Below are positions 9,092-19,452 of a DNA stretch of 64,000 bases, one piece after another. The DNA is from an uncultured Gemmatimonadota bacterium (GTDB lineage Bacteria > JAAXHH01): positions 2,112,001 to 2,176,000 of the forward strand of contig OX638340.1 in NCBI GenBank assembly GCA_951812955.1, written 5' to 3'. The translations under genes were made by a program, and so were the position numbers. The first letter of the stretch is position 1. Each line of letters starts with the position of its first letter. Below the pieces are notes generated by a model. The model did no database searches. It was not told the origin of the DNA and saw nothing but the letters and a program-made list of their open reading frames with translations.

Positions 9092-10654
9092 ATGGACGCC
9101 CTTCTTAAATCGAAATCCAATGAAGCCGATCGGTCGTCAGCCAGCTCCGGAGACCGGGAAGCCCTGACCCGTAGATCCTTTCTCAAGCAGGCGGCTTTCG
9201 TGGCCGCGGCGATGGCCGCCCCCTTTCCCGTGCTGGCGGATCCCTACGCACCGCAGTCCAGGAGCGCTGCGGCGGCCGGCGTGCGTCCGGTCCGCGTCTC
9301 CGGCCGCGTGCTTTCAGGCAGGGCGGGTCTGGGCGGCGTCGCGGTAACGGACGGACTGTCCGTCACCGCCACCGACTCGGAAGGTCGATTCGAGCTCGTG
9401 TCCAACACGATTCAGTCCTTCGTATCGATCTCAACGCCCAACGGCTACGCGTTGGAGCAGAATCCAAGCGGCATTGCCTCGTTCTACCGGCCGATCATGC
9501 CGGACGACTCCGGAGAGATGGCTGTCAGCTTCGATCTCGCGGAACTGGACGGATCGGACGAACGCCACGGATTTCTGGTGCTCGCCGACCCGCAGACCCA
9601 GGACGCCTACGAAATGGGACTCTTCCACGCGGAGACCGTGCCGGACGTCAAGGAGACCTCCGCCGCGCTGGCCGGCCGCCGGCTCTTCGGCGTGGGCTGC
9701 GGAGACATCATGTTCGACGATCTGACCCTGTACCCCGAGTACGAGCGGGGCGTGCTTCGCATGGGCATGCCCTTCTTCCAGGTCGTCGGCAACCATGACC
9801 TGGACTTCGGGCCGACCGACGACGGATCCGTCCGCACGTTCTGCCGACACTTCGGCCCCAACTACTATTCCTTCGATCGCGGAGAAATCCACTACATCGT
9901 GCTGGACAACGTGTTCTGGCACGGAGAAGGATACATCGGGTACGTGACCGACGACCAGCTCAACTGGGTAACCCAGGACCTCGCCCTGGTCGAGACCGGC
10001 AGGACCGTGGTGGTCTTCAATCATATTCCCCAGTATACCACCCGTCATATCAGAACCGGGGTCGACAGCCCGTCCATTTCGTCCACGACTGTGAACCGCG
10101 AGCGTATGTACCGCCTCCTGGAACCCTACAAGACCCACGTGTTCTCCGGCCACGTGCACGAGCACGAGCATATCTTCGAGGGCGGGATACACGAGATCGT
10201 TCAGGGCACGGTCTGTGGCGCCTGGTGGAGCGGCCCCATCTGCTGGGACGGCACGCCCAACGGTTATGGCGTCTACGAGGTCGACGGATCGGATATCCGC
10301 TGGCGGTACAAGTCCACGGGCTTGCCCGAAGACCACCAGATGCGGGTCTACCTCCGGGGCAGCGATCCCGGAGCGCCGGACGAGATCGTTGCCAATGTCT
10401 GGGACTGGGATCCCGAATGGCGCGTCGTCTGGTACGAAGACGGCATGCGGAGAGGCGCCATGGCCAGACGTCCCGGCACCGATCCGCTGGCGGAATCCCT
10501 GCACAGAGGGGCCGACCTGCCCGAACGCCGGCCCTGGGTGGAACCGGTGATCACGAATCACCTGTTCTACGCGCCGGTTTCGACCCAGGCCCGGAAGGTG
10601 GTGGTCGAAGCGACGGACCGCTTTGGCCGGACTTATGCATCCGAACTGATCTGA
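9092..10654 (+). CDS. Tat-exported calcineurin-like metallophosphoesterase.
   Basis: Twin-arginine signal TRRSFLKQAAFVAAAMAAPFPVLA. Metallophosphoesterase motifs GDIMFDD, GNHD and GHVHEHEH. The ATG at 9092 is preceded by GAAAGGAAG; the track start is a TTG three nt upstream. Confidence 0.8.
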   Translation: MDALLKSKSNEADRSSASSGDREALTRRSFLKQAAFVAAAMAAPFPVLADPYAPQSRSAAAAGVRPVRVSGRVLSGRAGLGGVAVTDGLSVTATDSEGRFELVSNTIQSFVSISTPNGYALEQNPSGIASFYRPIMPDDSGEMAVSFDLAELDGSDERHGFLVLADPQTQDAYEMGLFHAETVPDVKETSAALAGRRLFGVGCGDIMFDDLTLYPEYERGVLRMGMPFFQVVGNHDLDFGPTDDGSVRTFCRHFGPNYYSFDRGEIHYIVLDNVFWHGEGYIGYVTDDQLNWVTQDLALVETGRTVVVFNHIPQYTTRHIRTGVDSPSISSTTVNRERMYRLLEPYKTHVFSGHVHEHEHIFEGGIHEIVQGTVCGAWWSGPICWDGTPNGYGVYEVDGSDIRWRYKSTGLPEDHQMRVYLRGSDPGAPDEIVANVWDWDPEWRVVWYEDGMRRGAMARRPGTDPLAESLHRGADLPERRPWVEPVITNHLFYAPVSTQARKVVVEATDRFGRTYASELI

Positions 10655-10722
10655 GGCCGGTCCAAGACCGACTCCGAGGCATCCGAACTGATCTGAGGCC
10701 GGTCCAAGACCGACTCCGAGGC
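10639..10722. repeat. Perfect 42-bp tandem duplication (2 copies plus a partial third) spanning the stop codon of the metallophosphoesterase gene.
   Basis: atccgaactgatctgaggccggtccaagaccgactccgaggc occurs twice in tandem, followed by gtccgaaact. The first copy contains the TGA at 10652..10654. Confidence 0.9.
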
Positions 10723-10812
10723 GTCCGAAACTCACGGTGAAAACGAAGAACGGGTCATGAAGAGTCAACCATTCCCGGCAGAACGACACCGCCGGATAAA
10801 AGGGAGAACAAC

Positions 10813-11772
10813 ATGGCGAACGACGGCCTGATAAGCCCCTTCGACATCGATGACGAGGGATACTTCTGGCTCAAGGGCAATCTGCATTCCCACACGACCA
10901 ATTCCGACGGGAAGCCGTCACCCCAGGAACGGCTGGACGGGTACGTCAACCAGGGATACGATTTCCTGTGTATTTCCGATCACTACACCATAACCAGGAT
11001 CGACACGGTCAGCGCGCCGGACGATTTCGTCCTGGTGCAGGGTGCGGAGATCCATCCTGAGAACCCCTTTGGCGGCCAGACCCACCACTTCCTGGCCTAC
11101 AACATCGACGAAGACATGGATTCGAAGCGCATGCCGCCGCAGCACGTCATAGACGAGGTGCGCCGGCAGGGCGGCTCGATCTGGCTCGCCCATCCCCACT
11201 GGAGTTCGGTCAACATCCTCCGGGATACCCTGCCCCTTCACGGCCTGGCAGGCATCGAAGTCTTCAACACCACTTGCCGGTGCGCCGGACGCGGCGAGTC
11301 CTCCGTACACTGGGACGACTGGATGGACCTGCTGGGAAGGCCGATTCCAGCGCTCTCCAACGACGACTCCCACGCCCTCGAGTCGGAAAACCGGGATACC
11401 TACGGGGGCTGGAACATGGTGAAGGTCAAAGAACGCACGGCGAAGGCGATCATCGACGCGCTGGAAAGAGGCTGTGCGTACGTCAGTTCCGGACCCGAGA
11501 TCCGGGACATCCAGTTGCACCGCGTCGACGATATGGGTGATGGGAAACAGGTCGTGGAGGCGAGTATCCGGTGTTCAGAGGCGCAGAGCATTCTCGCCGT
11601 GTTCGATTCCCATGGTACGGAGTTTCGGGACCGGACAGGCCATGGAAAAACCTTCGAAGATGCCACGTTTACGCTGCGGCCCAATGTACGGTGGGTAAGA
11701 TTCGAGATCATCGCCCCGGACGGCACGAAGGCCTGGTCGAATCCCATGGATCTGGCGAAAGTCGGTCGGTGA
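10813..11772 (+). CDS. PHP-domain (polymerase/histidinol-phosphatase-like) metal-dependent phosphoesterase.
   Basis: GNLHSHTTNSDG N-terminal PHP motif, further His/Asp clusters (ISDHY, AHPHW, NDDSHA) and a size of 319 aa. Confidence 0.8.
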   Translation: MANDGLISPFDIDDEGYFWLKGNLHSHTTNSDGKPSPQERLDGYVNQGYDFLCISDHYTITRIDTVSAPDDFVLVQGAEIHPENPFGGQTHHFLAYNIDEDMDSKRMPPQHVIDEVRRQGGSIWLAHPHWSSVNILRDTLPLHGLAGIEVFNTTCRCAGRGESSVHWDDWMDLLGRPIPALSNDDSHALESENRDTYGGWNMVKVKERTAKAIIDALERGCAYVSSGPEIRDIQLHRVDDMGDGKQVVEASIRCSEAQSILAVFDSHGTEFRDRTGHGKTFEDATFTLRPNVRWVRFEIIAPDGTKAWSNPMDLAKVGR

Positions 11773-11897
11773 TACCGCCGCGGACCGCTACAGTGGGCGT
11801 TCAGAACTCGGAGGTCGAATCCCATGGATCTGGCGAAAGTCGGTCGGTGATACCGCCGCGGACCGGCACGGTGGGCGTTCAGGACTCGGAGACTGCC
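11722..11897. repeat. 88-bp tandem duplication (2 copies, 3 mismatches) spanning the stop codon of the PHP-domain gene.
   Basis: ggtcgaatcccatggatctggcgaaagtcggtcggtgataccgccgcggaccg...ggcgttcag.actcggag is repeated with an 88-bp period. Copy 1 contains the TGA at 11770..11772. The duplication is mirrored in the spurious ORFs 11571..11972 and 11400..12041, which show repeated peptides. Confidence 0.9.
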
Positions 11898-11946: not shown

Positions 11947-13581
11947 CTACGGAAGGTCCTGCCGAAGCATGACCTCGGTGAGAACGACGGCCGATGTCGA
12001 CGCATTGTCATCGTAGTAGGTAACGAAGCGCTTCGTCTCATGGGCGTCGTAGGGGGCGAGGTTCTGCGCCCACCGGAAGCCGATGGTCTGGAACATCAGC
12101 CGTGCCCTGACTACGATTCCCTGCACACCCGGCCGCGCGGCGACGCGGTACTGGACCCTGTCGCTTCCGGCCTGGAAATCCCCATCTTCCCGCGCCGCTC
12201 CATGCACCATGATTGCGGCTTCGGCGCTCTCCTTGTCGAACCCCTCGGGCAGCAGGCGGTTGTCCTTGGCGTAGGTGACGGCCGATAGCAGGCCCGTGGT
12301 AACTCCACCTGACCCGTCCGCGATGATCGGCTCATAAATCTGTACCTGGCCGGGGTCGTCGATCACTTGGTAATGCGGCTCGAAGCGGCTACCGTCCGCG
12401 TCGTTGTCGTTACCCTTAATGCTCCCGTCGGGAAGCATGGCACCGGATTCAAACACCACGTCCCCGCCGTCATCACGAACCTCGAGGTGGATCCAGGCCC
12501 TTCGCGACGGATAGGCCGTCGGCAGCTTGTGGCCCGCCAGGTTCGACACTTTAAGATCGATAACGTATTGGTTCTCCGCGCGGGAGACTGCCAGCACCTC
12601 CAATTGAGCTGTCGCAGTCTGCAAGTGCTCCCGCGTCGCCTCGGCGGCGCGCTGAAGATCGCTTGACGGCGCGGTGACCAGCAGCTCGTCCCGATACCTG
12701 TCCAGCAAACGCAACATAAACTCGTTGCCGCCGCGAAACACATGGCGCGAGACATTCTCCCTGTACTCCCCGAGCACCGAGGAGATGGGGGCCGATGAGG
12801 TCTCCGGCATGTGGCAGGACTGGCAGCTTTCGGTCGCCGAAAAGGCGCTGTGTCGCCATTCCAGGTAGGGCGTCTGCTCCGGGAAACGGGCTGTTTCTCG
12901 CCCTTCCGCGTCCAAACTTGTCGTGAACAGGGTGTGGCAGGTCGCGCACAGTTCCGATTCCTGCAGATGCGCGGATGAATCCGGTGTGAAACCGGTGGCG
13001 GACTGCATGATCCGGCGCCGCCCGTCGTCCACGTCGAAGGGCCCGAAGATCTGAGGGTCGGTGCCTGTGCTTGAACGGATCACGAAGTTCCCATCGAAAC
13101 TCGATTCCTCGCCGAAATTGTCGGGCCGGATCTGATGGCAGGTGGTGCAGGACACCCCATCGAGGGCCAACATGGCGCGCTCGTCGCCCTGCCGCGCGGC
13201 TTCCAGGTGTGCGAACACTTCTCCCAGTCCGCCGTTTTCCTTCGCCAGCACACGCGCCATGGGCATATGGCAGGTCGAGCAGGTGTCCTCGATCTCTGCC
13301 CGGGCGTCCGGATGGTCGGTCACTTCCCGGCGTACGGATGCCTGCCAGTAGGGATCCCGCGCCGAATGCGCCATGACGGAACCGCGCCATACGTGCCCGA
13401 TGGAGACGTCCGTTCCGTCCGGACCGGTTATATTGCTGTGACAGGCGATGCACTGGTCCGAAGTGACGAACGTGCTTTGATCCCCGGACTGCGCCTCGAC
13501 CGATGCGCACGCGAGCCAGGCGAAGGCGAGCGGCGCCAGCGTGAGGCACGTCAGCAACCGCCCCGTGTAGTTACCAGCCAT
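11947..13581 (-). CDS. Pentaheme c-type cytochrome (five CXXCH motifs) with a ~280-aa heme-free C-terminal domain; probable lipoprotein or secreted protein.
   Basis: CIACH, CSTCH, CTTCH, CATCH and CQSCH all fall in the first ~260 residues. Signal peptide with LAC lipobox-like cleavage region. The start overlaps the upstream gene by 11 nt, so the two are likely co-transcribed. Confidence 0.85.
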   Translation of the reverse strand: MAGNYTGRLLTCLTLAPLAFAWLACASVEAQSGDQSTFVTSDQCIACHSNITGPDGTDVSIGHVWRGSVMAHSARDPYWQASVRREVTDHPDARAEIEDTCSTCHMPMARVLAKENGGLGEVFAHLEAARQGDERAMLALDGVSCTTCHQIRPDNFGEESSFDGNFVIRSSTGTDPQIFGPFDVDDGRRRIMQSATGFTPDSSAHLQESELCATCHTLFTTSLDAEGRETARFPEQTPYLEWRHSAFSATESCQSCHMPETSSAPISSVLGEYRENVSRHVFRGGNEFMLRLLDRYRDELLVTAPSSDLQRAAEATREHLQTATAQLEVLAVSRAENQYVIDLKVSNLAGHKLPTAYPSRRAWIHLEVRDDGGDVVFESGAMLPDGSIKGNDNDADGSRFEPHYQVIDDPGQVQIYEPIIADGSGGVTTGLLSAVTYAKDNRLLPEGFDKESAEAAIMVHGAAREDGDFQAGSDRVQYRVAARPGVQGIVVRARLMFQTIGFRWAQNLAPYDAHETKRFVTYYDDNASTSAVVLTEVMLRQDLP

Positions 13582-14692
13582 CGCGGAAACCTCCGTCGAA
13601 CCAGTCCCACAACAGGTACATGACGATCTGCGGTTTACGGCTTAACTTCCTGGCGACCGGAACCCGCAACCCCACGTTGAGCAGAATGTGCTGGCGCGTG
13701 TTGAGCGAGACCTGCAGTTGAGGCACGAGGTCCATCGCGACACCGGAACCGGAATCAAGTTCGCGCCAAGCCAGGACCTCGACCATGGGACTCCAGGCCC
13801 GGCCGAACTCGCCATCCGTGAAGGTCCTGCCGATCAGCGCCCTTATGGCTACTTCATCCTCCACGGAGCCGCTCACGGCGAATTCACCCAGCGCCTGGGC
13901 CTGGAAAAAGGCGTCTCCGGGCATAAGCTGTACGATGGCCAGGTAAGGCTCCAGTTTCGTGGAGCCCGTACCGAAGCCGTTTTCTTCGTCGCCGGATGGC
14001 AAGATGACTTCGCCGCCTATACTGAAGGCATGACCACGCCCCAAGTCGTGGTACAGGGCATACTTGTAGCCAAGCGCCAGGTCCCCGAAGCCCAGGTTGG
14101 TCCCGTCGTCCCGCTCAGAATCGCGCCTGCCGAACGGGACCTTCACTTCGATCATGCCCCGGGGGCCGAACCGCTTCTCGTATACCGGCTCGATGATAAC
14201 GGCCTTGCTGTCGTCCGTGTCCAGCGTCAGATTGAATACCGTCTCGTCTTCGGGAAAGGCTTTCTCGGTAAACAGGGGCTTTGGAACGTTGAATTCGCCG
14301 CGTGGCCAGTTCTTGTTCGTGCAGAAGGTGCGGACATTGCCGAGGATAGCGTAGATTTCCTCGTCCGTGAGGGCATCCCCGAATGCGGGCATCATGCGGT
14401 CGAAGGCCCGCACCGGTCCCCCTTCATGGATCACGGCGTGCCAGTCGGGGTCGGGTTCGCGGGAAGCGAATTCGCAGTCCGTAAAGTCCGGAAGTTCCAG
14501 TGCAAACCCGCGCTCTTCGAGCGGACTTCCTCTTCCGTCCGATCCGTGACAGGCCGCGCAGGCCTGTTCATAGAGCTTTGCTCCGTCGAGCTTCGCCCCG
14601 ACGAGCTGGTCGGCGAAGGTGGAACGCTCCACAAACAGACCGTAAAGACTAAACAGTACCACTAAGCATTTGCAGCTATATCGCATATCCAC
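13571..14692 (-). CDS. Monoheme class-I cytochrome c domain fused to a ~250-aa C-terminal beta-rich domain (putative outer-membrane beta-barrel).
   Basis: Signal peptide, then CAACHG with a downstream Met ligand candidate (RMMPAF). The C-terminal half has alternating-hydrophobicity strands (AFSIGGEVIL, LEPYLAIVQL, FFQAQALGEFAV) and an aromatic-rich C-terminus ...MYLLWDWFDGGFRDGW. Confidence 0.7.
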   Translation of the reverse strand: MDMRYSCKCLVVLFSLYGLFVERSTFADQLVGAKLDGAKLYEQACAACHGSDGRGSPLEERGFALELPDFTDCEFASREPDPDWHAVIHEGGPVRAFDRMMPAFGDALTDEEIYAILGNVRTFCTNKNWPRGEFNVPKPLFTEKAFPEDETVFNLTLDTDDSKAVIIEPVYEKRFGPRGMIEVKVPFGRRDSERDDGTNLGFGDLALGYKYALYHDLGRGHAFSIGGEVILPSGDEENGFGTGSTKLEPYLAIVQLMPGDAFFQAQALGEFAVSGSVEDEVAIRALIGRTFTDGEFGRAWSPMVEVLAWRELDSGSGVAMDLVPQLQVSLNTRQHILLNVGLRVPVARKLSRKPQIVMYLLWDWFDGGFRDGW

Positions 14693-14858
14693 GCCGGATC
14701 CCGCGCCATCGGGAGCCGCACTGGCCGGACTGGCCGGACTACGCCTGGCACGCTACGAACCGACCGGCCGGAAGGGCTTTCCGCGCTACCGTTGACGCGT
14801 TGATTGTAACTGTGTGTTAAATTAGACGGTTTTAGGAGAGGTTTCCTGCGATTCGAAT

Positions 14859-15308
14859 TCAGACCACCCGCTCGATCCGAACGCGCTTCACCCCTTCCCT
14901 GCGTATGCGGTAACACACTGCGATGAAATCATCGGCGTCGCCAACCATCCGGGCGAAGAGATTCACCGCGACGGGGCCGTCCGGCATATTTGGCCGGCCG
15001 TCCCTGCCGTAGAACCAGCACAGTTCGGTGATCCCGTCCAGCCACCCGTGCATGCGTCCTGGCTCCAGCCTGAAGTAGCAAATGTCACCGGGCAAGGTGC
15101 GGCTTGTCAGGTTCTCGGGCGGGATGACGATGTCCTTAGACAGGAAGTAAGCGATCTCGCTGCCCGAGTACACGGCGTGGATGCCCTCTTCCTCCAGGGG
15201 CAGCGCGTCCCAGACAGCCTGGCAGGTCTTCGGCGCCTCGTCCTCAAGCAACTCGGCAACTACCGAAACGCCTTCTTCGACAAAGGTCAAACGGATCCTA
15301 CGGGCCAT
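14859..15308 (-). CDS. Cyclophilin-like fold protein (DUF3830-like); hypothetical.
   Basis: 149 aa. MARRIRLTF..GVSVVAELLEDEAPKTCQAVWDALP matches the N-terminal pattern of DUF3830/cyclophilin-like proteins as I recall it. No catalytic assignment is possible. Confidence 0.4.
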   Translation of the reverse strand: MARRIRLTFVEEGVSVVAELLEDEAPKTCQAVWDALPLEEEGIHAVYSGSEIAYFLSKDIVIPPENLTSRTLPGDICYFRLEPGRMHGWLDGITELCWFYGRDGRPNMPDGPVAVNLFARMVGDADDFIAVCYRIRREGVKRVRIERVV

Positions 15309-15361: not shown

Positions 15362-16171
15362 CTACAACTTCATGAATATCCCGATGTCCCAGGCCGACGC
15401 ATCCAGCAGATTGTGCGCACCCGTGTATTTCGTCACGCCCGCGGTAATCCCCGCGTCGGACGTGATGTAGAAATTGAGCTCCGGACCGAATGACACGTAC
15501 TGCTGGTCGTTTCGGGTCCACTCGCCATCCGACTTTCCCAGGGCTTTCACACCGCGAATCCAGCCGGAGAACCCGACTCGCTCGCCAGCCATGAAACCCG
15601 CTTCGAGAGCGTACCTCAGTTCGTCGGAGTAATCGCTTTCACGATTATTGAAGCCGATTTCGGCTTTCAGGTAGCCCGGTGTCGGCCACAGGGAACGACC
15701 GACCTGGAGCGAGAATAACTGGTTGAATTCACCATCGCCGGTGAACAGGCCGATTTCCTGGTCGGTATAGGAATCTCCCAGCGGCAATCCCGCCATGACC
15801 TGAATGCTCACGACCGTGGGCCCGCTGGTGAGCAACCCAATCCTGGCGCCAAGCTCCCAGTCCCCCGTACCCGTCTTGGTGTCGGACCCGTGCCTGTCTT
15901 CACTGATACGCTGATAAAAGGGAATGTACCCTACAAGTGTCAACCGGTCTACAAGGCCGAATTCACCATACAGGCTGGTCGTATATCTGCTCAGATCCGT
16001 TATGTCTACCCTGTCTCCGGACGGCTCGAAATACGAATTGCTCTTAATAAACTGCTCGTTCAGCTTGAAATAGCCCTTGCCCTGGGGATGGGTCCATCCA
16101 CCGGCGAATACCGTGGATACCTGGAGGATGAACCCCGCGAGCAAGGCGCCGGCATAGATGAGTTTGGACAT
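15362..16171 (-). CDS. Outer-membrane beta-barrel protein (paralog A), ~250 aa mature.
   Basis: Signal peptide MSKLIYAGALLAGFILQVSTVFA. Amphipathic beta-strand periodicity is seen throughout, and the protein ends ...WDIGIFMKL. It is about 55% identical to the next gene. Confidence 0.55.
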   Translation of the reverse strand: MSKLIYAGALLAGFILQVSTVFAGGWTHPQGKGYFKLNEQFIKSNSYFEPSGDRVDITDLSRYTTSLYGEFGLVDRLTLVGYIPFYQRISEDRHGSDTKTGTGDWELGARIGLLTSGPTVVSIQVMAGLPLGDSYTDQEIGLFTGDGEFNQLFSLQVGRSLWPTPGYLKAEIGFNNRESDYSDELRYALEAGFMAGERVGFSGWIRGVKALGKSDGEWTRNDQQYVSFGPELNFYITSDAGITAGVTKYTGAHNLLDASAWDIGIFMKL

Positions 16172-16210: not shown

Positions 16211-17035
16211 CTACAGTTTCAGAAACAGCCCGAATTCCCAGGCTGGCGCGTCCAGCATGCTATGAGCCCGGGTGAATTTCGACATGCTGGCGGTAATTCC
16301 CGCATTAGGCGTAACATAGAAATCGACCTGGGGGCCGAAGGACAGGTACTCGATTTCGTAACGCGAACGGAATTCATCATCCGCTTTGCCGAGGACTTCG
16401 ATCCCGCGGAGCCAGACCGATACGCCCAACCTTTCAGCGACCGTGTAACCGGCTTCGAGACTATACCGAAGTTCATCGGAATAGTCGTCAATAGGATCGT
16501 CGTCGCCCTGTCTATTGTTATACCCGATTTCGGCTTTCAGGTAGCCGGGTACCGGGTAGAGTGAATGGCCCACCTGGAGCGAGAAGTGCTGGTTGAATTC
16601 GCCGTCGCCGGTCCAGAGGACGACACCCTGGTCTGATTCTCCCAACGGCAATCCCGCCAGGGCTTGCAGGCTGACCACCGTGGGGCCCTGTGCCAGAATA
16701 CCGATCCTGACCCCTATGTCCCAGTCGCCAATGCCTGAAGTCGAATCGAAGCCTTCGGCATCCACGCTGAACTTCGAATAAAACGGCATGTAGCCCACAA
16801 GAGTCACCCGGTCGAGCAAGCCGAATTCACCGTAAAGGCTCGTCGTATTGCCGCTTACGGTCGGTATCTCGGTTTTGGACCCGGTTGCCAGGAACAGTGA
16901 TTCGGCGCGCACGAACTGCTGGCTTAGTTTAAAGTACCCCTTGCCCTTCGGCTGAGTCCATCCGCCTGCGTGGGCAAGAGTTGAATAGCAGATCAACGCG
17001 GCTGTCATCAATGTGGCTGCTATGAACCTGTTCAC
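16211..17035 (-). CDS. Outer-membrane beta-barrel protein (paralog B); tandem duplicate of 15362..16171.
   Basis: Signal peptide MNRFIAATLMTAALICYSTLAHA. Shared blocks GGWTxPxGKGYFKL, TTSLYGEFGL.DR.TLVGY.PFY, GDGEFNQ.FSLQVG.SL.P.PGYLKAEIG.NNR and a C-terminal ...W.FG.F.KL. Confidence 0.55.
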   Translation of the reverse strand: MNRFIAATLMTAALICYSTLAHAGGWTQPKGKGYFKLSQQFVRAESLFLATGSKTEIPTVSGNTTSLYGEFGLLDRVTLVGYMPFYSKFSVDAEGFDSTSGIGDWDIGVRIGILAQGPTVVSLQALAGLPLGESDQGVVLWTGDGEFNQHFSLQVGHSLYPVPGYLKAEIGYNNRQGDDDPIDDYSDELRYSLEAGYTVAERLGVSVWLRGIEVLGKADDEFRSRYEIEYLSFGPQVDFYVTPNAGITASMSKFTRAHSMLDAPAWEFGLFLKL

Positions 17036-17061: not shown

Positions 17062-19452
17062 TCAAAATGATCCACTGCCGAGTGGCATATTCACAAACGC
17101 GCAATGAAGAATGACATTGCTGTAGGAGTCAATCGTCTCGCCCGCACGGGGTGTGAAGGTACTTGTAAAACTGCGGCTGCCTGTGACGTTCCCAAAATGC
17201 CTGGCGCCAGTAGGAGCGGGACCGCTACGCCAATTGATAGAGGCACTGGTGTATAGAAACAAATGTGCAGCAATCCCGCCTCCAGTGTTCATTCCGGTTA
17301 TGGTCAGTTTGAGTCGACCGCCGGAGACTTCTTCGAAGGTCACGGACCCGGCGGTGCTCGGATAGCTGCTCGTACCGGAAATTGAAGCAGTACGGCTTCT
17401 CAACATCGGTGGAGGCGGCGGAGGCTCGGTCACCGTCAACGACGCCGTACCGGACTTGCCGTCCACCTCTGCTGTTATCGTCGTGGATCCGGCATTCCGT
17501 GCCCTGGCCAGTCCCGTGGTGCTTATGGTCGCAACCGACGTGTTGCTGCTCGTCCACGTAAAAGTCTTCCCGGTAATCTCCATGTTGTTCGAGTCATAGG
17601 CTGTCGCAGTGAATCGTTGCGTCTCGCCTTCTTCGATCGAACGGGAAGATGGAGACACGGCAACCCGGTCAACTACGGGGGGTGGAGGCGGAGGTTCCGT
17701 CACCCTTAACGTCGCTGTGCCGGATACGCCGTCGACGGTTGCCGAGATCGTCGTGGAACCTGCATCCAGGCCCCTCGCCAACCCAGTTACACTTATCGTG
17801 GCTACCGTCTCATCAGAACTTGACCACGTAAACGTCTTGCCCGTTATCTCGGAATTGTCCGACGTGTGGGCGGTGGCAGAAAACCGCCGGGTCTCACCCT
17901 CCTCGATTGACGCTGAGGAGGGACTCACTGTCACGGTTGCGACCATCGGTGGTGGTGGCGGAGGTGGTTCGGTCACTGTGAGCGTCGCCGTGCCGGATAC
18001 TCCATCAGTCGTCGCCGTGATCATCGCTTCGCCCATTCCGACACCAGTCGCCAGGCCGTTCGCGTCGACCGTCGCCACCATGTCATCCGAACTCGACCAT
18101 GTAAACTCCACGTCCGGGATTTCCATCCCGTCCGACGTCATTGCCATCGCCGCGAACTGCTGCGTCGCGCCTACCTCGATCGTCGCTTCAAGTGGACTCA
18201 CTGACACCGTCGATACCACCGGCTCGGGTGGCGGTGGTTCGGTCACTGTGAGCGTCGCCGTGCCGGATACTTCGTCAGTCGTCGCCGTGATCATCGTTTC
18301 GCCCGTTCCGACACCGGTCGCCAGGCCATTCGCGTCGACCGTCGCAACCATCTCGTCAGAACTCGACCACGTAAACTCCGCGTCCGGGATTTCCATCCCG
18401 TCCGACGTCATTGCCATCGCCGCGAACTGCTGCGTCGCGCCTTCTTCGATCGTGGCTTCCGATGGACTCACTGTCACGGTTGCTACAACTGGCTCTACTG
18501 GCTCGGGTGGAGGCGGTTCGGTCACCGTCAGTGTCGCCATGCCGGATACACTGTCCGCGGTAGCCGTGATCATCGCCTCGCCTGCTCCTACACCACTCGC
18601 CAGGCCGTTCGCGTCGACCGTCGCCACCATCTCGTCAGAACTCGACCACGTAATCTCCGCGTCCGGGATATCCATCTCGTCCGATGTCGAAGCCATCGCC
18701 GCGAACTGCTGCGTCGCGCCTACCTCGATCATCGCTTCAGGTGGACTCACCGACACAGTCGATACCACCGGATCGGGAGGCGGAAGTTCGGCTACGTTAA
18801 TGGTAACCGGCGAACTCGCTATACCGTCCGCCGTGGCGCGGACCGTTGCCGTACCCGCTGCGACTGCCGTGGCAACGCCGGCCGATGTAATGGTCACTTT
18901 GCTGGTATCGCTGCTCGCCCATGAGAAACTGACACCTTCGCGAATGGCGCCTCCAGACGTCCGGGCCGTCGCCGTGAAGGTCACCATTTCCCCAACCATC
19001 AGCTCCTGGGTCGAGGAAGGAGAGATCGTGACCCGGGCCACGGCGGCCTGGGTGACCGTGATCGTCACCGGTTCGCTCACGATGCCGTTTCCCGTCGCTC
19101 TGATGGTCGCCGTACCAACACTTACCGCGGTTGCCCGTCCACCGGCACTGATGGTTACTACGGCGGTATTACTGCTGGACCAGGTATAATTGACACCGCT
19201 TATTACGGCGCCGTCGGAAGCCTTGGCGGTCGCAGCCAACTGTTGTGTTCTGCCCACTTCCAGAGACACCATGTTCGGACTCACTTCGATGCGAGAGACC
19301 GTCGGTGCGGGGGGAGGTGTCGGCGTCGGTGTGGGTGTTGTCGGCTCGGCCGGTCTGGTCGGGGAGGAGTCCCCACCGCCGCACCCGACATTCAGCAATG
19401 CGCTTGAAACCGCTATCATGATGAGACCGGTAGCAATCGACCTGAATGACAT
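17062..19452 (-). CDS. Large surface lipoprotein with about 8 bacterial Ig-like (Big_2) domains, Pro-rich linkers and a distinct ~120-aa C-terminal domain.
   Basis: The lipoprotein-type leader ends ...ALLNVGCGGG. The module V.VSP...V..G.T.QL.A.....G..I........W.SS...VATV...G...AV..G.A.I.A...G is repeated and separated by TEPPPPEP linkers. Three central copies are nearly identical at the DNA level. Confidence 0.75.
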   Translation of the reverse strand: MSFRSIATGLIMIAVSSALLNVGCGGGDSSPTRPAEPTTPTPTPTPPPAPTVSRIEVSPNMVSLEVGRTQQLAATAKASDGAVISGVNYTWSSSNTAVVTISAGGRATAVSVGTATIRATGNGIVSEPVTITVTQAAVARVTISPSSTQELMVGEMVTFTATARTSGGAIREGVSFSWASSDTSKVTITSAGVATAVAAGTATVRATADGIASSPVTINVAELPPPDPVVSTVSVSPPEAMIEVGATQQFAAMASTSDEMDIPDAEITWSSSDEMVATVDANGLASGVGAGEAMITATADSVSGMATLTVTEPPPPEPVEPVVATVTVSPSEATIEEGATQQFAAMAMTSDGMEIPDAEFTWSSSDEMVATVDANGLATGVGTGETMITATTDEVSGTATLTVTEPPPPEPVVSTVSVSPLEATIEVGATQQFAAMAMTSDGMEIPDVEFTWSSSDDMVATVDANGLATGVGMGEAMITATTDGVSGTATLTVTEPPPPPPPMVATVTVSPSSASIEEGETRRFSATAHTSDNSEITGKTFTWSSSDETVATISVTGLARGLDAGSTTISATVDGVSGTATLRVTEPPPPPPVVDRVAVSPSSRSIEEGETQRFTATAYDSNNMEITGKTFTWTSSNTSVATISTTGLARARNAGSTTITAEVDGKSGTASLTVTEPPPPPPMLRSRTASISGTSSYPSTAGSVTFEEVSGGRLKLTITGMNTGGGIAAHLFLYTSASINWRSGPAPTGARHFGNVTGSRSFTSTFTPRAGETIDSYSNVILHCAFVNMPLGSGSF

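Follow-up and report, generated by a model that had tools for sequence, protein, structure and literature searches.

Within the window, by which we mean the whole 64,000-nucleotide stretch of DNA that was analyzed, a gene on the reverse strand (13571–14692; 373 codons from a GTG in the list of open reading frames) encodes a cytochrome c fused to an outer-membrane barrel. Pfam matches to both parts (PF13442 and PF13557), structure prediction and a fold search uphold the fusion proposed in the initial annotation and confirm a modeled layout of signal peptide, class I monohaem cytochrome c domain, linker and 12-stranded barrel. The explanation that we favor, tentatively and by analogy with characterized systems, is that the protein would hold a haem, anchored in the outer membrane, at the periplasmic mouth of a plugged channel, where it would trade electrons with a partner protein.

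The true start of the fusion gene is probably the ATG at 14686, two codons past the GTG, as a 96%-identical homologue begins at that ATG. Residues 1–27 (...RSTFA/DQ; 14612–14692) read as a signal peptide, and the N-termini of the homologues are all hydrophobic and end in AxA-like sites. The homologue search found the two-domain architecture to be common to more than 6000 proteins, and that thousands of homologues are built alike, together with the significant E-values of the domain matches, argues that the architecture is not a chance one. Literature searches found no description of a fusion between a PF13557-type barrel and a cytochrome c. In current databases the fusion and its partner are labeled only as "c-type cytochrome" or "hypothetical protein".

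The cytochrome domain (residues 28–124; 14321–14611) matches PF13442 (E 2.8e-10) and PF00034 (E 1.4e-6), each above its gathering score and over residues 35–116. A sequence scan found exactly one CXXCH in the protein, the CAACH at residues 45–49 (14546–14560), of which C45, C48 and H49 are invariant among the homologues. The initial annotation had also pointed to a downstream Met, and within the sequence RMMPAFG all of 63 homologues keep M101 and at least 90% of them keep M100. Profile positions 90–114 align with the C-terminal part of cytochromes c6, where the Met ligand of those proteins sits. Judged on these sequence features, the haem is predicted to be His/Met-ligated, with the Met supplied by the MPAF motif, as in class I c-type cytochromes. 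The nearest solved sequences are those of Kuenenia c552, CcoP and cytochrome c6. Residues 62–124 are almost invariant across phyla, and two additional cysteines, the invariant Cys73 and the near-invariant Cys124, may form a disulfide.

The cytochrome domain is followed by a near-invariant linker, WPRGEFNxPxPLFTEKAFPEDE (residues 125–149; 14246–14320), which AlphaFold2 modeled with confidence as coil ahead of strand 1 (pLDDT 81–88). By analogy with FapF, a 12-stranded plugged barrel in which a periplasmic N-terminal domain controls the plug and a PTG motif lies at the base of the strand 5–6 loop (PMC5557850), the linker probably plugs the barrel lumen. The barrel itself (residues 150–363; 13604–14245) is modeled with pLDDT >90. 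Neither a soluble β-sandwich nor a known periplasmic domain, the two outcomes named in the initial annotation as refuting the barrel, turned up in the C-terminal part of the protein. PF13557, the type of barrel against which a comparison had been suggested, matches residues 174–291 at 33.5 bits (cut-off 22; only profile positions 39–168 of 242 are covered) and is also precomputed for most of the fusion homologues. The best Foldseek matches are 12-stranded outer-membrane barrels, with FapF (5o68, E 9e-10), COG4313 (channel Pput2725, 4rl8, E 4e-6), KdgM and NanC as the top folds, so that the barrel is of the PF13557/COG4313/FapF type.

The alternating strands and aromatic C-terminus on which the barrel had originally been proposed are both borne out: the 12 predicted strands show a strict alternation of hydrophobic with polar residues, and the C-terminus (...LLWDWFDGGFRDGW) is almost invariant in the homologues. 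A PSG motif (LPSGDE in the window protein; family consensus EVILPTGDED) is found at the base of the strand 5–6 loop. Polar residues of the predicted lumen are invariant or nearly so (E172, R174, E182, E228, E248, Q264, R298, E305, D321, Q327, R333, H335, N339, and R343); lipid-facing positions vary. Loops predicted to face outward are short and vary for the most part, whereas little or no variation is seen in most of the periplasmic turns TDGEFGR and NTRQHI, of the linker and of the C-terminal tail. The tail, WFDGGFRDGW (residues 364–373; 13574–13603), is itself invariant and predicted to be periplasmic. Barrel topology, and the way in which the outer loops vary while the inner turns do not, suggest that the haem domain is placed on the periplasmic side.

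The partner gene (11947–13581, reverse strand) encodes a Sec-exported pentahaem cytochrome of 544 residues with five CXXCH motifs, in which a five-haem cap at the N-terminus is followed by an Ig-like domain at the C-terminus. Its overall fold is similar to that of the pentahaem cytochrome c552 of T. tepidum (PDB 5ze8), and the protein belongs to the c552/MccSep fold rather than being a generic pentahaem wire. Mean column identity of the partner family is 58%, and numerous His, Met, Tyr and Arg residues do not vary at all. The only conserved cysteines in the family are the ten in the CXXCH motifs, and the remaining cysteines of the window's partner are confined to its signal peptide.

From an 11-nt overlap of the two genes the initial annotation had concluded that they are translationally coupled and that their products form a 1:1 partnership. 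The overlap (ATGGCTGGTAA, 13571–13581) is present, with the fusion ending D-G-W-stop and the partner beginning M-A-G, a start that is nearly invariant in partner homologues, and a GGAGG ribosome-binding site (13590–13594) falls in the last part of the fusion gene, 8 nt ahead of the partner ATG. Partnership is well supported, as a pentahaem gene adjoins the fusion gene in 78 of 88 related loci, spread over at least six phyla and otherwise unrelated neighborhoods. Overlap or tight spacing is common among distinct loci, but the exact 11-nt overlap occurs in only 26 of 71 (the others have short overlaps, small gaps or divergent orientation), and a 1:1 stoichiometry is not inferable from it.

The two-gene module was found in at least 558 species, at 50–95% identity, from sponges, soils and sediments, and its hosts include Gemmatimonadota, Acidobacteriota, Gammaproteobacteria, Balneolales, Rhodothermales and Latescibacterota, among others. 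Fodinibius sediminis DSM 21194 and Rhodohalobacter sp. 8-1 are cultured hosts. All-against-all clustering of neighbors identified no third conserved gene beyond the pair, with the proviso that the crude ORF calls used are noisy at high GC. Neighbors of ~320 residues in the window and in two other loci (L003 and L006) were considered as a third module gene and rejected, being mutually unrelated, and genes for a DUF3830 protein, two small barrel-like proteins, and Big_2, PHP-like and metallophosphatase proteins were set aside because they accompany the pair in close relatives only.

In a sister clade the fusion is retained and the pentahaem protein is replaced, in seven of the nine loci that lack it, by a protein that we tentatively assign from its sequence as cupredoxin-like. 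This assignment is based on an HNV...CDIHGWM motif, a sub-threshold match to Pfam Copper-bind (E 0.14), and JGI and UniRef names; BLAST against an approximate amicyanin sequence gave no meaningful alignment. The protein is currently mislabeled "TonB-dependent receptor". The replacement of the pentahaem protein by a cupredoxin-like one, which as such would do no more than carry electrons, together with the lack of a Sec and of any conserved Cys outside the CXXCH motifs, suggests that the partner is a relay and the fusion the constant, specific element of the module, and that the partner itself is probably not a catalyst. The extreme conservation of the partner would, against a relay role, fit a true enzyme too.

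In the explanation that we favor, the C-terminal FapF/COG4313-type barrel anchors the His/Met monohaem domain in the outer membrane, and the haem domain would lie on the periplasmic face, joined through the invariant linker that probably plugs the lumen. The fusion would be made and work together with a dedicated periplasmic redox protein, the pentahaem cytochrome here and the cupredoxin-like protein in the sister clade, and both types of partner end in a β-sandwich domain with which they may bind to the invariant side of the barrel that faces the periplasm. A small redox-active solute would come from outside into the narrow channel lined by charged residues and, at the periplasmic mouth, trade electrons with the tethered haem, which the partner would connect with the soluble respiratory chain by relaying electrons in one direction or the other. 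Several points count against this explanation. The plugged 12-strand barrel may conduct nothing, and COG4313 channels were reportedly thought by van den Berg et al. in 2015 to import hydrophobic molecules rather than ions. Most of the hosts, moreover, are aerobic heterotrophs or sponge symbionts, and lithotrophy is not known among them.

An alternative that we consider unlikely, yet credible enough to weigh with care, is that the pentahaem protein is the catalyst, with a Tyr in place of a Sec, that the barrel passes its substrate or product, and that the tethered haem is an electron donor or acceptor that holds the enzyme at the channel. The precedent would be MccSep/ExtKL of Geobacter, a periplasmic polysulfide reductase with the porin ExtI, in which Cys239 and Sec325 are essential (PMC13510729). 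Like MccSep and c552, the partner is periplasmic, carries five CXXCH motifs, and combines a helical haem cap with an Ig-like stem. Its fold is homologous to that of MccSep, a proven periplasmic enzyme, and to that of c552. It also shares with these relatives a loop N-x-(A/Q)-(G/P)-H-x-x-P; in the partner this active-site loop is kept as N-x-AGH-x-x-P, with a nearly invariant residue, Tyr357, aligned with Sec325 of MccSep. The very high conservation of the partner would suit a catalyst, as would the position of its gene beside that of an outer-membrane barrel, for which the fold has precedents in ExtI–ExtKL and PtdA–PtdB.

Against this, the partner lacks both of the residues essential in MccSep and scores only 32.1 bits with the ExtKL model NF040886 of NCBIfam, the cut-off of which is 250. 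With no catalytic Sec or Cys and a score under that cut-off, it was rejected as an MccSep-type polysulfide reductase. It also differs from its relatives in having no Cys ligand on haem 2 and in being ~100–160 residues longer, and the barrel differs from ExtI in its family and in its fusion to a cytochrome c. The T. tepidum c552 is itself without an assigned function, and a catalytic role is hard to reconcile with a sister clade that keeps the fusion and swaps the pentahaem protein for a cupredoxin-like one.

It is improbable, in our judgment, that the barrel is permanently plugged and acts as an anchor only, holding the cytochrome c, and by way of it the partner, against the periplasmic side of the outer membrane to organize electron transfer in the periplasm, with nothing crossing. 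Such a role would accord with the closed state of the FapF barrel in its crystal form (PMC5557850) and with the short, mostly variable outer loops, which have no obvious external binding site, and the invariant lumen residues could be mere plug-packing salt bridges. A lipid anchor would, however, cost far less, the relatives of this barrel family are channels, and the invariance across phyla of ~15 lumen residues, the linker and the strand 5–6 loop exceeds the needs of a passive anchor. More doubtful still is a redox-gated channel, in which the redox state of the haem, set by the partner, would move the linker or plug; the idea comes from FapF, since here a cytochrome c takes the place of the periplasmic domain that controls its plug. 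We know of no outer-membrane protein with redox gating of this type, which, if true, would make the permeability of the outer membrane depend on how oxidized or reduced the periplasm is.

We regard as very improbable that the linker threads the barrel in the manner of a type Va autotransporter so as to display the haem outside the cell, or that the pentahaem protein is extracellular, for extracellular electron transfer: the order of signal peptide, passenger, linker and 12-strand barrel resembles that of autotransporters, autotransporter and intimin β-domains are among the weaker Foldseek matches (ranks 24–31), and the partner matches the pentahaem domain family of MtrC/MtrF domains II/IV (PF22113, E 8e-10), but no autotransporter Pfam model matched at E <0.1, the FapF and COG4313 barrels that outrank such barrels have periplasmic N-terminal parts, haem is attached covalently to cytochromes c in the periplasm and a 12-strand pore is unlikely to let a folded holo-cytochrome through, the partners have plain Sec signal peptides with a lipobox-like site in only 9 of 120, and 12 strands are too few to wrap around a multihaem protein in the way of the 26-strand MtrB. 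As an autotransporter the fusion was rejected on the Pfam and fold-search results.

Several known systems bear comparison with the module. It is like MtrAB, MtoAB and PioAB in that an outer-membrane barrel is genetically coupled to a multihaem cytochrome, but the barrels of those systems have 26 strands and enclose a decahaem protein, and one of 12 strands cannot enclose a cytochrome. An Mtr-type conduit was ruled out on this basis and by there being no MtrA-like decahaem protein in the 64-kb window, in which only two ORFs contain a CXXCH. The Ptd system of marine bacteria, including Gemmatimonadota and Acidobacteriota, comprises the pentahaem protein PtdA with its β-sandwich, the porin PtdB and PtdC–G (bioRxiv 10.1101/2023.11.21.568154). 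As in Ptd, a c552-like pentahaem gene here lies beside an outer-membrane barrel gene. Going by its description only, Ptd differs in that the gene order is reversed and PtdB is not described with a haem domain, and it has five further conserved genes (for a flavoprotein, a tetrahaem protein, an Fe-S protein, a ferric-reductase-like protein and a decahaem protein), none of which was found beside the pair in the window or in four contexts with called genes. The genome LB_ACB_1 carries both systems, ptd on QQVD01000056 and the fusion–partner module on QQVD01000006. With FapF and COG4313 the fusion shares 12 strands, a strand 5–6 loop with a PTG-type motif at its base, an N-terminal domain (here predicted to be periplasmic) and a conserved segment right before strand 1, here the candidate plug; it differs from FapF in that its N-terminal domain binds haem where FapF has a coiled coil, and in that fap genes are absent nearby.

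The closest parallel in organization is with Cyc2, whose gene is used as a marker of iron oxidation by microbes and which is, as far as we know, the one family of fused cytochrome-porins described to date. In both, a single polypeptide starts with a signal peptide, continues with a monohaem c-type cytochrome and ends in an outer-membrane barrel. Both are also paired with a periplasmic carrier: a cupredoxin and a cytochrome c for Cyc2 in Acidithiobacillus (rus operon), and a pentahaem or cupredoxin-like protein here. Cyc2 is characterized by the motif PXFAR[Q/K][T/Y] five residues before its CXXCH, PXL four residues after it, and a 16-strand OprO/OprP-like porin, and its haem domain has been modeled at the periplasmic mouth, with Fe2+ entering the pore (PMC8406198). 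Neither motif is present in the fusion, which has ...LDGAKLYEQA upstream of its CAACH and GSDGRGSPLEE downstream, where the first Pro comes eight residues past the His and is followed by L-E. With these motifs missing and 12 strands instead of 16, the protein is not a Cyc2, in keeping with its original description as reminiscent of but not obviously homologous to that family. In place of the short haem peptide of Cyc2 it carries a full c6/c552-like domain of ~100 residues, its barrel is of the PF13557/FapF type and highly conserved whereas the porin of Cyc2 is poorly conserved, and its hosts are without known iron oxidation, in contrast to the iron oxidizers Acidithiobacillus and Mariprofundus.

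Because a 12-strand barrel cannot sheath a cytochrome, a mechanism like that of Cyc2 would work only with a substrate that gets into the pore. Its cytochrome domain and barrel family, both different from those of Cyc2, and its far higher conservation suggest that the fusion may represent a second kind of cytochrome-porin, independent of the first, the wide distribution of which would indicate an unrecognized outer-membrane redox process in common heterotrophs. The two-gene module and its cultured hosts offer a clean experimental handle, and characterization would carry the newly characterized MccSep/c552 fold to a Sec-free and Cys-free branch and reveal how a 12-strand barrel is coupled to electron transfer. 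By analogy, the fusion and its partner would most likely be a functional counterpart of Cyc2 and rusticyanin/Cyc1, assembled from unrelated domains.

The fusion protein is encoded on the minus strand at 13571..14692, an ORF of 373 codons when read from the GTG of the ORF list, and a homologue of 96% identity starts at an ATG two codons after that GTG. It contains a single CXXCH motif (CAACH, residues 45-49) within a class-I cytochrome c domain spanning residues 35-116 (Pfam PF13442, E 2.8e-10; PF00034, E 1.4e-6) that is c6/c552-like, and a methionine in RMMPAFG is the probable haem ligand. Residues 62-124 are nearly constant from phylum to phylum, and the two additional conserved cysteines, C73 and C124, may form a disulfide. 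Across the 64-kb window only this ORF and that of the pentahaem partner carry CXXCH. The leader immediately 5' of the fusion start codon contains 2.9 tandem copies of the 9-nt unit GCCGGACTG (window 14715-14740).

The remainder of the protein belongs at the domain level to the PF13557/COG4313/FapF class of barrels. PF13557 (Phenol_MetA_deg), an outer-membrane barrel family, matched residues 174-291 at 33.5 bits (cut-off 22), and an AlphaFold2 model built from 63 homologues (mean pLDDT 82.7) placed twelve strands in residues 150-363 with pLDDT > 90; the haem domain was modelled at lower confidence, as expected without haem. The top Foldseek match in the PDB was the Pseudomonas amyloid transporter FapF (E 9e-10), followed by Pput2725 (4rl8), a channel of the COG4313 family, and by the KdgM/NanC porins, which have 12 strands. 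With these results the architecture and barrel family are established, and both halves of the initial annotation's proposal, an N-terminal domain with one CAACH and a C-terminal outer-membrane barrel, hold.

Hydrophobic and polar residues alternate along the strands of the barrel, and the invariant or near-invariant polar positions (E172, R174, E182, E228, E248, Q264, R298, E305, D321, Q327, R333, H335, N339, and R343) presumably point into the lumen; the hydrophobic, lipid-facing positions are variable. Outer-membrane barrels usually have both N- and C-termini in the periplasm, and under that topology the loops predicted to face outward are short, with sequences that for the most part vary. 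Invariant or near-invariant residues predominate in the periplasmic turns (TDGEFGR and NTRQHI), in the linker of 25 residues (WPRGEFNxPxPLFTEKAFPEDE) and in the tail at the C-terminus (WDWFDGGFxDGW). The family consensus of the strand 5-6 loop is LPTGDE, matching in position a conserved PTG motif of FapF. In FapF the N-terminal domain, located in the periplasm, also controls a plug in the lumen (PMC5557850).

The partner gene (11947..13581, minus strand) encodes a protein of 544 residues with five CXXCH motifs and a Sec-type signal peptide. Since a lipobox-like site was found in only 9 of 120 homologues, the protein is probably soluble in the periplasm. The profile of its family extends to MccSep (Geobacter ExtKL) at the selenocysteine loop of that enzyme, where NLAGHKLPTAYPS aligns with NHAGHSIPDGUPT and Tyr357 lies opposite Sec325. 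MccSep is a periplasmic polysulfide reductase whose activity depends on Sec325 and on Cys239, a ligand on haem 2 (PMC13510729). The pentahaem family shows no conserved cysteine beyond the CXXCH motifs, and the NCBIfam ExtKL model scored the protein at 32 bits, below its cut-off of 250. These two results make the family a distant, chemically different branch of the MccSep fold; the fold of the partner and its lack of the MccSep catalytic residues are established.

Relatives of the fusion number more than 6000 among 90%-identity clusters, and the best 120 of these are all full-length, 54-96% identical and composed of the same two Pfam domains, with annotation that goes no further than "c-type cytochrome". 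Clustering at 50% left 374 representatives with E < 1e-30, and a scan in which each species was represented by a single genome located the fusion in at least 558 species. Hosts among the matches listed include Gemmatimonadota, Latescibacterota, Acidobacteriota (Thermoanaerobaculia and Vicinamibacterales), Gammaproteobacteria, Alphaproteobacteria, Balneolales, and Rhodothermales, with Fodinibius sediminis DSM 21194 and Rhodohalobacter sp. 8-1 as cultured representatives and Gemmatimonadota MAGs from sponge or coral as the closest relatives of the window. The module of the window is 70-79% identical to those of five related loci (L011, L014, L017, L019, and L021), the MAGs compared being assigned to different phyla (Gemmatimonadota, Latescibacterota, Gammaproteobacteria, and Acidobacteriota) and several originating from sponge or coral metagenomes, which suggests recent horizontal transfer or mis-binning.

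The first 11 nt of the pentahaem gene coincide with the last 11 nt of the fusion gene (ATGGCTGGTAA), and GGAGG lies 8 nt 5' of the pentahaem ATG. Both this overlap and the partnership had been put forward in the initial annotation; the first is present in the window sequence, and the second is upheld as a conserved partnership by adjacency of the two genes in 78 of 88 loci whose surrounding genes differ from locus to locus. The same 11-nt overlap recurs in 26 of 71 distinct loci, other short overlaps or small gaps occur in 34, and the genes are divergent in 11. Comparison of neighbors across the related loci revealed no third conserved gene.

Nine loci have no pentahaem gene within the locus sequence examined. 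In seven of them (L044, L047, L058, L069, L070, L078, and L079, a sister clade from Palauibacter and Longimicrobiales) the gene overlapping the end of the fusion gene (e.g., L078, 7160-7909) encodes a secreted protein of ~250 residues, which ends in a beta-sandwich of the CarboxypepD_reg family (PF13620) and shows a copper-site pattern resembling that of amicyanin (...ATLHNV...CDIHGWM). Pfam Copper-bind matched it at only E 0.14; many of its homologues are named "plastocyanin" (JGI) and one "cupredoxin domain-containing protein" (UniRef). The NCBI label "TonB-dependent receptor" on several of these proteins looks like a mis-annotation. Each type of partner thus joins a redox domain to a beta-sandwich domain; what can be exchanged is the redox domain, pentahaem or putative cupredoxin, and the fusion stays constant. 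The remaining two loci, L061 and L081 (Gemmatimonadota), have neither gene downstream, nor any Met-start ORF of at least 100 residues on the fusion strand within 500 nt, and their fusion genes are possibly orphan copies.

Other genes near the module in the window show narrower conservation. A DUF3830 (cyclophilin-like) gene (14859-15308, minus strand) lies directly 5' of the fusion gene across a 166-nt gap, an arrangement that the closest relatives alone (8 loci) retain. Just upstream are two paralogous genes (15362-16171 and 16211-17035, minus strand) for secreted proteins of 269 and 274 residues, a pair that only close relatives (11 loci) have beside the module; the proteins have no Pfam or NCBIfam match and display barrel-like alternation and GxGD/LPLGD motifs reminiscent of PF13557 barrels. 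A 796-residue Big_2-repeat protein with Pro/Thr-rich linkers (17062-19452, minus strand) has a 270-nt tandem repeat in its gene (17963-18791, 3 copies, 84% matches), and its orthologue in the related locus L001 is twice as long (1647 residues), so repeat number differs between relatives. Near-perfect tandem duplications lie on either side of a PHP-like gene (10813-11772): one at 10637-10729 (42 nt x 2.2, 98% matches), the other at 11735-11891 (78 nt x 2.0, 94% matches), which covers the PHP-like stop codon and extends into the convergent intergenic region by the end of the pentahaem gene.

The model that we tentatively prefer, at somewhat below an even chance, would by analogy with FapF place the haem domain on the periplasmic side and have the linker plug or gate the lumen. 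The partner would dock on the invariant periplasmic face, and a small solute would pass through the channel to the fusion haem, with the partner relaying electrons. Candidate substrates are metal cations, sulfur species, because of the relatives of the pentahaem fold, and hydrophobic redox molecules, because COG4313 channels are believed to import hydrophobic compounds. As the main alternative, the pentahaem protein could be an enzyme, the barrel its substrate channel and the tethered cytochrome a wire. The porin ExtI is a parallel for such a channel, serving MccSep, and the extreme conservation of the pentahaem protein and the tyrosine at its Sec position also favor an enzyme; however, the missing MccSep catalytic residues and the exchange for a cupredoxin-like protein make this the less probable account. 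That the barrel is an anchor only is improbable given the invariance of its lumen residues, and display of the cytochrome at the surface, or a genuine conduit across the membrane, is very improbable because a 12-strand pore is too small to pass or sheath a holo-cytochrome.

We rejected membership in Cyc2, as the PXFAR[Q/K][T/Y] motif, the PXL motif and the 16-strand porin that define it (PMC8406198) are all absent, in agreement with the initial annotation's description of the fusion as reminiscent of, and not obviously homologous to, Cyc2. The proposed handling of Fe2+ by Cyc2, with the haem domain at the periplasmic mouth and Fe2+ entering the pore (PMC8406198), follows the same scheme as our preferred model. 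An Mtr/Mto/Pio-type conduit was likewise rejected, since the 12-strand pore cannot sheath a cytochrome. The cupredoxin-like partner recalls rusticyanin, which is encoded in the Acidithiobacillus rus operon. The pentahaem-porin pairing has a parallel in the Ptd cluster, which comprises the c552-like pentahaem PtdA, the porin PtdB and five further genes (bioRxiv 10.1101/2023.11.21.568154); those five genes are absent at the module, however, and the locus type is different. MAG LB_ACB_1 carries both, with ptd on QQVD01000056 and the module on QQVD01000006. Our literature searches on fusions of cytochromes with PF13557/COG4313-type barrels found no description of this fusion. Fused cytochrome-porins are a kind of protein already known, and the present one is widespread, strikingly conserved and has a partner that can be swapped.
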